Assembly: GCF_000002075.1 (NCBI RefSeq) | Contig: NW_004797539.1 | Span: 730,829 to 794,828 of the forward strand | Length of the DNA stretch: 64,000 bases | Source of the DNA: Aplysia californica | Lineage: Eukaryota | Reading direction: 5' to 3' | Shown here: positions 1,691-63,500 of the stretch, piece after piece | Position numbering within the stretch: the stretch's first letter is position 1 | Layout of the letters: every line of letters starts with the position of its first letter | Position numbers and translations under genes: made by a program | Notes under the pieces: model-generated | Told to the model about the DNA's origin: nothing | Databases searched by the model: none | The model's input: the letters and a program-made list of their open reading frames with translations, nothing else

Positions 1691-2064
1691 ACATCCTCAA
1701 GAATATAAATGGTGTTGAAAGAGGTGTAGAACATTTATTGTCATTCGAGTATTAACATGTGACTTTTAATTTCGTTGTCCTTTTTAGCACTTTGCTTCAG
1801 CGTTATAGTTTAAGAACCTGTTGCCTACGACGAAGTGAAGGGCTTTGATAGTTCCTAAACAAAGTAAGTTCAGAACTGGATTTGAACTCCAAAGTCATAT
1901 TCATCATTGTCTTGTCACTTTGATATGTGGAATCTAAGCCATCAACAAGCTGTCTCCAGTTGTTACAATCCATAACAGCCTCTTCGATTGTCTCCTCAAA
2001 AGCCTAGCTTCATTCTCCCTCTACCTATGCTCTAAATGGCCATGTCTTTTTGTCCACATTTCAG

Positions 2065-2321
2065 GCGAGAAGACGTTCCAGTGCCCCCTGTGTGATAAAC
2101 GTTTCATGCGCAGCGATCACAAGATCAAACATGCCAAACGGCACGCCCTGTTCCACCCGAGCATGCTAGAGACAAATACTCGCCATGTCGCCCGCAGTGT
2201 CATCCCTCCACCCCAGCAACAGCAGCCTTGTGACTTCCAGTACGTGCCGGACTGCGACATGGGCAGCGACGGTGCCGCGTCTTTCCGCTCAAACAACACA
2301 AGTCCAGCCGCACAGCCTTAG
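2065..2321 (+). CDS. KLF9/13: KLF9/13-like factor, terminal coding exon (zinc finger 3 plus C-terminal tail)
   Basis: tttcag|[39 protein letters not shown]...[26 protein letters not shown] resembles vertebrate KLF9/KLF13 as I recall them; phase matches the previous exon. Confidence 0.9.
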
Positions 2322-60500: not shown

Positions 60501-63500
60501 TTTTTCAAAAAGGCCCTGATTTCATCAAGATATTTTACTAACAACCCGAAGTGTCATCTTTCTCAGACCAACATTTGACTAAAATCCTCGTGTGGATGGC
60601 CTTCATTATAACATTTTACTATGGCTGAATCTGAAAACAATTATTCTGAGAAAACCCCCGTTTTCATGATATTTTCCCCTTAATTGCAGTACATTTTGTT
60701 TGTGAAAAGCCCTGTTTTCATTTTAACATTTTCCTTTTCACTAACCTGAAGAACAATTCTTTTGTGAATGGCAAACTTGGCAATGATGTGAGCCAGGAGG
60801 AGATGTCCGTGGTACTTGGTGGCCGGGTCCACACAGTTCTTGGCCACTAGGCACGGCCAAGCAAAAGTCATCAGGCGTCGCAGCTTGTTGCCTTGTTTCC
60901 TGGAAAAGACAATTTTTCTTCTTTAACCGGGAGCTGGCTGAGTGTTTGGGATGGAGTAGGGTGCTCAGAAACTGGCTGGGTTCATAGGTTCAAGGAAACA
61001 ACAGCCAGATCCATAGAGGGACTTTAGGAAAAGGATGTCAGGTCCATGACAGCACGTCCTTGTGGCAGGTCAAAGCCATACCTCAGCAGGAATTGTGGGT
61101 GAGGAACATTGCCTGATAAAAGCGTCTTCGAAAATGCTGGTTGCAAAATTTATATTTAAGTACATGTCTGATACATTCTTAAAGTAGTGACACGAATAAA
61201 AAAACTTTGTCAAAAAAAAACTTTTATGCCAAATAAAACAAAAACATATTTTAAGCACCAATGGTAGTATGTACAAAAGGTGCGCTGACTTTTAACAAGG
61301 TGTTTGTGCGTGTATGTGCGTGTGTGAGTGCTTTTCTGGGTAGTGTATGTGAGTGTGCCTGGGCACTATGTATTTAACATTTATCAGTGTGTTTGTATAT
61401 GTGTGTATATGAGTGTGTGTGAATGACGCACTATCGAAAATGACCTTACATATTTGCAATTTGAGCCACAAACATTGCAAGCACGCAATGCAATCACTTT
61501 CTCTCAACAGAACAACCAAGAACACAGCAGCAGGCATAGATGTCTTACTTGTTGGCAGCGTCATGGATGTGGGAAGATGCCTGCTCCACCAGCAATGAGG
61601 AGAACTGTAACAAGAGGATCCGCACAGCGTCTGATGTCCCGAATGGGTTCTCGGGATCGATGACGCGGTTGATGAAGACGCTGATGACGTTGTCCTCGCT
61701 GTCCTGGTCTGGGGCCGGGGGGCCGCCAATGAGCTTGTCACCTTCTCCCTTCTCAAACGAGTTGAAAAAGCAAGGAACCAGCACGTACTGCAGGATCTGA
61801 AACCAGATGATGATGATAGAGATAAGAACGAACTAGAAAATCTAAAATAGAGGAACAAGCAAGGGACCAATGCGTACTGCAGAATTTGTAAACTGATGAT
61901 GCAGTTACAGTGACCAGAACGTACTAGTTTGGTTTTAGAAAGAGTTCTATGGCACTTGCAACACAGTAAGATGGGAAAGAAGATTAGAGGTGATACAAAA
62001 GAGTAACAAACACCAACAAGAAGGTAGGAAAACATTGACGTACTGGAGATCTCTGAAACCAGATGATGAGGAAGCAATGGACCAGAGCATACTGGAGAGG
62101 TTGTGAACAGACAATTCCATATTTCACTTTATCCAAAACAACAGTCTATTTTTCTTGTTTTAGCGTTAGTAAAAGCTTTACAGCACTTGCAACAAAATAA
62201 GGTCATATAAGTGTTGAAGATTAGAGGAGTTACAAGGGAGTAACAAACAAAAAAGGAGGAGAGATAAAGACGATAGTTGTTTGATAGGAAAGAAGGAGCA
62301 AACCACACCAGAGCAGCCGCCAACCACCCACAATTTTTCTTGAGTAAGAGTTTGAGATATTCAAGTTACATGACAGAAGCACTTTGAAACGATAATGGCC
62401 ATGGAATGCTGGGAAAACACAAGACAGAAGAAACTTCTTGAGTGAAAAGAAGCGCACTGACACAATAACAGTCACTTAGAGTCGTGAAAAGAAAGATAGG
62501 CAGACAGAAACAAAAGAGGGAAAGGAAAGAAGTAGGACCTACCAGTGGCACCCTCAAATCACCCACAGACATCTATCCAAAGCATTCAAGACCAAATGAT
62601 GACAATTTCTCTTTTTCTACATCCACAACAATATGCTGGTTTTGATGAGGAGCGAGTTCCAGTAAAAGAGAAGCACATTGCCATGATAATGAACACAGAG
62701 TCTGTCAGTTTGAGGAAAGAGAATCAGAAACATTTTCACACAATTATTACCATTTTATTGCTAGTTAAAAGTAAAACTGACTGACAAAAACAACACTGGA
62801 AAGTGTACTTTTAGTAGAGGTTTTACGGCACTCGCAACTGCATATGGTCATATGAGCGCCAGAAGATTAGAGGTGTTACAATAGAGTAACAAACATAAAA
62901 AAGAAGAAGGGGGAGATAAGGACAATAGATGTTTCATAGGAAGGAAGAAGCAAACCACATCAAAGCACCCGCCAACCACCCAGGAACACTGGAAAGACGC
63001 AGGATCTGCAAATGGCACCCTCCAAACATCCGCAAAGTTAGAAGGCAAAGGATAAAGAGGTCTATAGAGTCCATGAAGAAATATACCTTAGCTTTGAGCT
63101 CCTGTGGCCAACTCTGGTCATGGAAAACAGTGACAAACTTGAAGAAAGCCTTCCTCTTCCAGTCAGCACTGTAAGTCTGTTGAGCAAAACGGCAAAATTC
63201 CAGTTGTCTAATTTCACCTGAATATCATAGAGAATGTTTGCTGTCTCTATATCAGGATTTACTGCTTTAAATGCTTACTTATACATCTCACCCATAATTT
63301 AGATCTTTCAGTAAAGAGAAGCATCACAATAATGGTCATTGCGAGTATGGAAAAAGACAGAAACACGAGAAATGAAAGTGAAGAAATAGGACTCCAGGAA
63401 ATATGCGAATTGACGAAAAATTTAAAGACCATATTGTCAAATGCATCTTGTATTAAAAATATTTTTCAGCTTCACTAAAACTGGCCTGAAGTCAGGCAAA

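Follow-up and report, generated by a model that had tools for sequence, protein, structure and literature searches.

Copies of three related, pyrimidine-rich repeat families in the genome of Aplysia californica, here called A, B and D, lie predominantly in the same sense as the genes that contain them. This orientation bias is real and genome-wide, and stronger than first described: in 547 kb of myosin, SNF2, kinesin and dynein genes (the broad set, from 69 contig groups and labelled by gene family, not by germ-line expression), 184 copies were sense and 22 antisense. The pattern had been noted in a preliminary description of a single stretch of DNA, 64,000 nt in length (positions 730,829-794,828 of contig NW_004797539.1, assembly GCF_000002075.1), referred to here as the window. 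A near-1:1 ratio was named there as refutation; sought outside the window, the ratio was about 8:1 in favour of sense, and the refutation failed. That description did not include family D, the partner LINE or the peak at 3′ splice sites, all reported below.

Two converging genes occupy the window. TRRAP, on the minus strand, has its best hits in Bulinus and Lymnaea; 47 introns were mapped by spliced alignment, a spliced contig extends to 11083, and a minus-strand AATAAA lies at ~11032-11051. The KLF-type gene has plus-strand open reading frames at 1370-1606 and 1938-2321, contigs up to 9866, plus-strand poly(A) reads at 9300-9846 and an AATAAA at 9848. Its apparent 3′ UTR spans ~7.5 kb (2300-9870, plus strand). 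The strands of both 3′ ends rest on few raw poly(A) reads, all on the expected strand, the contigs being strandless. Both strands of the window were scanned with hidden Markov models (HMMs) of A and B at E ≤ 0.05. Genes and repeats were placed as follows, the A, B and Nin-type copies as HMM matches and, from 14892 onwards, with sense referring to TRRAP.

1370-9870, plus strand: KLF-type zinc-finger gene, represented by its final exons and a long 3′ UTR, with the poly(A) signal at 9848
1531-1728, 19366-19554, 21132-21195, 25810-26011, 29531-29600, 36781-36977 and 50228-50418: CORE2-type SINE copies, all sense
4820-4957, plus strand: family A copy (E = 2 × 10−17), KLF-sense, in the KLF 3′ UTR (no intron)
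9934-9985, plus strand: weak family B head fragment (E = 0.017), KLF-sense, ~65 nt beyond the KLF poly(A) site
10031-10538, minus strand: full-length Nin-type tRNA SINE between both poly(A) sites, with the 3′ tail of A; control
10544-10701, minus strand: two fragments of family B in TRRAP sense, lying 320-480 nt beyond the end of that gene
11020-63833, minus strand: TRRAP, partial in the window; coding exons 63833-13488, 3′ UTR down to about 11020-11083
14892-15037, minus strand: family A copy, sense
17016-17469, minus strand: two B fragments, sense, either side of an antisense Nin-type copy
17122-17370, plus strand: Nin-type copy, antisense
19593-20694, minus strand: four B pieces, sense; the one at 20606-20694 stops 32 nt short of a 3′ splice site
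25547-25724, minus strand: full-length young family A copy, sense; the reference copy
26793-27036, minus strand: a head-to-tail pair of sense B copies, the second stopping 51 nt short of a 3′ splice site
31645-35260, minus strand: five B copies, sense
35795-35954, minus strand: family A copy, sense
37108-37412, minus strand: two B copies, sense
41249-41646, plus strand: Nin-type SINE, antisense; control
42603-42751, minus strand: two B pieces in sense orientation that stop 61 nt short of a 3′ splice site
43212-43348, minus strand: sense copy of family A that stops 32 nt short of a 3′ splice site
52260-59410, minus strand: nine sense B copies or pieces, of which two stop 39 and 20 nt short of a 3′ splice site
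61928-63027, minus strand: three A copies and five B pieces in one 1290-nt intron, all sense
63305-63393, minus strand: family B copy, sense

Within TRRAP, all 40 matches (8 A and 32 B) were on the minus strand and thus sense, and with the two fragments just past its 3′ end they bear out the uniform orientation first reported. At a stricter cut (score ≥ 25, ≥ 60 nt) the sense:antisense counts were 7:0 for A and 20:0 for B, in 18 separate clusters; reversed-sequence controls gave no match to the A, B or D models. On the KLF side, the two copies near 4820 and 9930-9990 do lie the opposite way on the genome, sense to their own gene, the latter weakly matched and past the poly(A) site. A third fragment claimed at ~2025 proved to be a 14-nt match alone, missed by both HMMs. 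Orientation flips between 9985 and 10544, that is, between the two poly(A) sites, as proposed for the point where the genes converge, and the AT skew of the window reverses at the same place. The antisense Nin-type copies were also found as described. The statement that CORE copies occur both ways held for CORE1 (three sense and one antisense in TRRAP) but not for CORE2, which was sense in 6/6 TRRAP and 3/3 KLF-side matches; the names Nin and CORE are our own assignments by tRNA head and length, not library matches. Two CORE2-type copies end about 30-36 nt before an acceptor.

Some further features of the locus were recorded. A diverged partial duplicate of the TRRAP exon at 52400-52625 lies in the next intron (52197-52391, minus strand), with a B copy inside or beside it. 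The exon at 14596-14701 (minus strand) is present in contig X21 and absent among the rows listed for the long spliced contig X8; it is possibly, though uncertainly, a skipped exon. Short-period tandem repeats occur in TRRAP introns at 57775-57936 and 47542-47735 (18-bp and 26/30-bp units). The 10 kb upstream of the window, 45% of which is N, contained no A, B or D copy.

Family A is 178 nt long, with a GTGGG start, a pyrimidine-rich body and a ~45-nt tail followed by short CTAAAA/CAAA repeats. Its 5′ end is fixed, since 112 of 133 copies with an intact 3′ end begin within 5 nt of the model 5′ end. Target-site duplications (median 11 bp) flank 67/159 full-length copies and 38/62 copies of at least 90% identity, compared with 0/150 in a mismatched control. 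The duplications, the fixed 5′ end and the tail together show that the pyrimidine-rich strand is the element's own sense strand. Family B (~135 nt) is older and has its head in common with A, while family D (~390 nt) carries the pyrimidine block and tail of A under a different head. With its target-site duplications and LINE tail, A is a non-autonomous non-LTR retroposon, a SINE in the wide sense; as a class, the elements vary on the retroposons already known to depend on LINEs.

Several other origins were considered and rejected. A, B and D have neither a B box nor a tRNA head, and their copies gave no Rfam match to snoRNAs, ribozymes or other families. ARAGORN found no tRNA in A loci, nor in the tRNA-headed Nin control. 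All three families carry internal runs of 5-6 T, at which Pol III would be expected to terminate, a sign that is not decisive, T5 being present in CORE1 and CORE2 as well. The missing B box and Rfam match and the T runs speak against a canonical Pol III SINE with a tRNA, 5S or 7SL head and A and B boxes, and the Rfam result against a C/D or H/ACA snoRNA-derived retroposon. Release by a ribozyme was rejected as neither A nor B matched an HDV-like or hammerhead descriptor and Rfam gave no ribozyme; D matched one descriptor loosely, with a 200-nt linker. An introner or lariat-derived, rolling-circle origin was rejected because copies lie within introns and, where they join head to tail, the junction reflects either nested insertion with target duplications or a partial repeat. 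One locus (L020:1104-1680) has a full copy followed by the A tail repeated six times, head to tail in 67-bp units, and an inverted second A 130 nt away. Four GG tracts in the head, and pairing of the head with the tail, could guard the 5′ end, but the fold was not significantly stable relative to shuffles (z = −0.89). A short hairpin is retained in the consensus bodies of both A and D; its loop is CU-rich, the two families differ in it by a paired change of bases, and it may resemble PTB-type sites.

The tail of A, D and Nin matches the 3′ end of a young LINE whose 1226-aa ORF2 encodes endonuclease, reverse transcriptase and RNase H (shuffle p = 0.003), A and Nin-type copies having ~45 nt of tail in common. 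B and CORE2 tails match a sister subfamily of this LINE. None of twenty other RNase H LINE 3′ ends (Ingi, Vingi and I-like) carried the A tail. The ORF2 domains (PF14529/PF03372, PF00078 and PF00075) and CCHC knuckles in ORF1, read from the translation, assign the partner, as judged from its sequence, to the I superfamily; its placement as Nimb or I, by the C-terminus, is presumptive. Compared with four 5′-end stretches of the partner, the heads of A, B and D showed no clear match, the likeness being of pyrimidine tracts and composition-driven (p = 0.003-0.11). Partner fragments in oriented genes were too few to interpret (four sense, two antisense). Partner copies at L397:245-632, L399 and L401 bear two alternative ~390-nt 5′ units with an ACCCCC start and a TATA-like box; one copy has both in tandem, and sister subfamilies with different tails have one 5′ unit in common.

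For genome-wide counts, exons were located by Pfam searches of the same genome, and 80 gene and 20 arbitrary 10-kb stretches were merged with exon-centred loci. Copies were counted at a score of at least 25 over at least 60 nt, and as A only where the body was included. Dynein genes were sampled as 3-kb loci alone (74 kb). The neural set comprised 360 kb of ion-channel genes, also labelled by gene family, and the random set 175 kb of arbitrary DNA, which contains genes. Thirty loci from the cys-loop search, mostly single-exon genes, were left out of the counts; kinase genes, being mostly single-exon, formed a side class alone (A 5:1).

Every family was sense-biased in the broad set (A 114:15, B 54:6, D 16:1) and in the neural set (A 17:6, B 9:1, D 7:4; total 33:11). 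Random DNA held 20 copies, with A at 7 and 7; these 14 copies in 175 kb extrapolate, roughly, to about 75,000 A copies in the genome. Controls in the broad set stood at 4:8 for Nin, 14:11 for CORE1, 30:11 for CORE2 and 21:27 for four putative DNA-transposon families. CORE2 outside the window gave 30:11 and 28:13, without gene enrichment. By gene, 40 of the 45 broad genes with a copy lean sense and five antisense; the neural figures are 11 of 15 and three, with one tied. Merging neighbouring copies left 130:19. Tail-only pieces in broad genes, which are of mixed origin, gave 12:7. Individual loci can be dense: 10 kb of a CHD7/8-like gene (L281, G000:C1431:18500-28499) holds 14 A and 4 B sense copies and a myosin gene (L261, G000:C479:16000-25999) 6 A and 4 B, neither with an antisense copy.

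Densities show that the bias is an excess of sense copies, about six-fold in broad genes, with antisense copies near background. Sense density per 100 kb was 33.6 in the broad set, 9.2 in the neural set and 5.7 per strand in random DNA (broad versus random, p = 1 × 10−20). Antisense density was 4.0 and 3.1 in the broad and neural sets, differing neither from random DNA (p = 0.27) nor between classes (p = 0.48). The true background is probably below the random-sample figure because that sample contains genes. Nin and CORE SINEs were not enriched in broad genes.

The check by age that the preliminary description had proposed found no rise in bias: full-length A copies, TRRAP included, gave 19:2, 33:2 and 28:3 from young to old, and the bias persists in copies at least 90% identical. 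Copies more than 500 nt from any called exon were 57:7 sense. Of the 28 closest A matches genome-wide, 22 had T-rich flanks in the direction of the element. Sense density correlated with masked T>A skew (ρ = 0.43) and with CpG depletion (ρ = −0.39; n = 64); antisense density followed neither. Such skew and depletion are taken as proxies of germ-line activity, marking germ-line transcription and gene-body methylation. In voltage-gated channel genes the skew is high, yet density is low.

Position relative to splice sites was examined for the 106 of 184 sense copies, TRRAP excluded, with a called exon on either side, distances being in element-free nt. Exons came from homology and from a caller trained on TRRAP, where it made 33 calls on 46 exons with none false and 31 acceptors exact, figures that are optimistic because it was self-trained; missed exons would blur a 3′ splice-site peak, not create it. 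A 3′ splice site lay within 100 nt of the copy end in 35/106 cases versus 12.1 expected (p = 3 × 10−9), and a 5′ splice site within 100 nt of the copy start in 10/106 versus 12.1 expected (3′ versus 5′, p = 2.5 × 10−4). Two thirds of sense copies lie away from 3′ splice sites. The peak lies 16-130 nt before the AG, and none of 67 A copies ends closer than 16 nt. In two young copies the target duplication covers the acceptor region, so that the AG was rebuilt behind the tail, and in several cases the tail is now at branch-point distance. Target sequence at the nick showed a weak A bias only, which would favour antisense. Antisense A, B and D copies in the broad set gather just after 5′ splice sites (5/17 within 100 nt versus 1.5 expected). 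With sense copies before 3′ sites, the tail thus tends to face the nearest exon either way, a placement that may point to exon-anchored chromatin targeting.

These data are most simply fitted by a strand-blind background plus a sense-only route operating in transcribed genes. Since Nin, with the same tail and presumably the same enzyme, stands at 4:8, the sense-only route likely depends on the RNA of A, B and D; that the bias would have to come from this RNA, through some factor, is also a point against the reading. Template-strand insertion yields sense orientation (PMC5717806, in the part consulted). We lean, at somewhat better than even confidence, towards transcription-coupled, sense-only insertion, in which A, B and D preferentially enter the template strand while their host genes are being transcribed in the germ line. 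Of the three explanations first offered, transcription-coupled insertion best fits the sense excess, the flat age profile and the persistence deep in introns. Against it stand the 12:7 of tail-only pieces, the low density in voltage-gated channel genes and the two thirds of sense copies away from 3′ splice sites. All counted copies are insertions present in one genome assembly, in which strong selection before fixation would look the same as insertion bias.

In this main reading, A, B and D are promoter-less passengers of the I-superfamily LINE, and their RNA would be made by Pol II within host introns, so that sense intronic copies would be the only sources. The pyrimidine-rich RNA, once released from the intron, could bring the enzyme to the transcribing or splicing complex through a spliceosome link. 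Dwelling at the intron 3′ end would make insertion most frequent there, and the copy would be sense where the template strand was nicked first. Antisense and intergenic copies would come by a background route that is blind to strand. The CTAA-type tail repeat may let copies survive between branch point and AG. An element copyable from sense positions in transcribed DNA alone would be expected to favour such targeting. A bolder form of the scheme is put forward tentatively, as a possibility we would not bet on: that the elements are intron-born, and that their RNA recruits the LINE enzyme to elongating, splicing Pol II, priming on the template strand near 3′ splice sites, as self-serving targeting by a promoter-less element. 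One raw RNA run yielded mostly repeat reads from other loci.

The chief competitor, which we hold to be rather unlikely, is that active gene bodies are targeted without regard to strand and that purine-rich antisense copies, enhancer-like or exonising, are then strongly purged. The antisense strand is indeed rich in GAA (2.8 per 100 nt in A and 4.4 in B, compared with 0 in the sense strand), strong selection would leave no age trend among fixed copies, and the local sense bias of human Alu near exons is explained likewise in the part of PMC3088655 drawn on here. A further hint of selection is that all ten antisense A copies lie more than 400 nt from a 3′ splice site (0/10 within that distance). 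The selection proposed in the preliminary description is otherwise weakened. Purging would have to stop at background level by coincidence, and the bias extends deep into introns and past poly(A) sites. On a splice-site matrix, which scores cryptic splice sites and not enhancers, antisense A acceptors are weaker (median 2.6) than those of random intron (5.1) or antisense Nin (7.3). Antisense Nin is equally GAA-rich (3.5 per 100 nt) yet persists, and the lack of Nin and CORE enrichment in the same genes counts against this competitor. We regard as distinctly improbable that weak positive selection lets sense copies fix more often because they add pyrimidine-rich, branch-point-like sequence aiding intron definition in highly used genes. 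The peak before the AG, the tails at branch-point distance and the T-rich sense strand of introns here suit this idea; it needs a roughly six-fold gain in fixation over tens of thousands of sites, some of them deep in introns and one in a 3′ UTR. Copy identity falls below 80% and no Rfam family matches, so that co-option as an intronic RNA element, also suggested at the outset, found no support.

Strand choice might instead be coupled to replication, with forks co-directional with transcription in broad genes and the LINE enzyme preferring one fork strand. Human L1 favours one replication strand, as stated in PMC10018349 (consulted in part), and T>A skew may also arise from replication. This reading predicts neither the 3′ splice-site peak, the six-fold density gain nor the Nin contrast, and the flip is confined to 560 nt between two poly(A) sites; we give it little credence. 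Least credible of all, to the point of being largely refuted, is that copies multiplied locally, by tandem duplication or in cis, or that T-rich introns gave rise to spurious detections. Sixteen of 42 young sense A copies lie within 50 nt of another A, B or D copy (6.6 expected), 14 of them co-oriented, and some neighbours may be partial repeats made at insertion. Independent target duplications and unrelated neighbours (nearest relative on the same contig in 4/79 cases, 2.6 expected) exclude local copying, and an artefact is countered by the empty reversed controls and by a bias that holds per gene, per cluster and in copies at least 90% identical.

Intronic retroelements are usually neutral or antisense-biased, and whether insertion or selection is responsible is a long-standing question. 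The sense lock of A, B and D is the reverse of the usual mammalian pattern, and one genome here offers, at tens of thousands of sites, elements with the same LINE tail of which A and D are sense-locked and Nin is not. Should insertion prove responsible, it would follow that a passenger RNA can redirect a LINE enzyme strand-specifically and tie it to splicing; this would go some way to accounting for introns so T-rich and full of repeats in the animal's housekeeping genes. The copies also indicate gene direction in unannotated DNA.

Among published systems, compared here from parts of the cited papers, the LP-SINEs of gastropods and bivalves (Matetovici et al. 2016, PMC4758252), known to us by description, are closest. 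They resemble A, B and D in their non-tRNA head, CT-rich body, variable target duplications, short tandem tail, Nimb/I-clade link and proposed Pol II transcription. LP-SINE heads, however, match the first ~70 bp of a Nimb 5′ UTR, whereas those of A, B and D had no clear match in the partner 5′ ends compared. The LP-SINE table names no LP family for the sea-hare clade, and 'orientation' and 'intron' are absent from the main text of that paper. The Nin-DC and CORE SINEs of sea hares (PMC4758252, PMC5804259) are linked to the present families by their tails: Nin-type copies have the ~45-nt tail of A and D, and CORE2 that of B. Unlike them, both have tRNA-type heads, Nin-type without bias and CORE2 with a mild sense bias. 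The bipartite non-autonomous LINEs RIME and RTESINE (Kojima 2018, PMC5786205) are likewise non-autonomous, carry a LINE tail and are likely transcribed by Pol II; they are reported from RTE, Ingi, Vingi and R2, and differ from A, B and D, in which no LINE 5′ part was seen. In the literature covered, which includes few subscription papers, no sense-locked or 3′-splice-site-enriched mollusc SINE was reported; bivalve SINEs accumulate in genes by survival bias (PMC11481361, in the part used).

Findings on orientation in other systems, again as given in the parts of the papers considered, include points against the insertion reading. De novo insertions of the Drosophila I element show no strand bias (PMC10018349), and the bias of dog SINEs is antisense (10.1101/2020.10.27.358119). 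In human L1 (Servant et al. 2017, PMC5717806), orientation is set at insertion and tied to transcription, as is proposed here for A, B and D. Its bias is antisense, however (39 antisense to 17 sense, about 2:1), and arises by removal, transcription-coupled repair opposing sense insertion, whereas A, B and D are sense by excess, at about 8:1 and with a splice-site peak. Alu copies 20-200 bp from exons (Zhang et al. 2011, PMC3088655) are also more often sense than antisense. The Alu bias is local, in a zone near exons where all transposable elements are depleted, whereas in A, B and D it is the sense copies that gather near the 3′ splice site, and the bias runs the whole length of introns.
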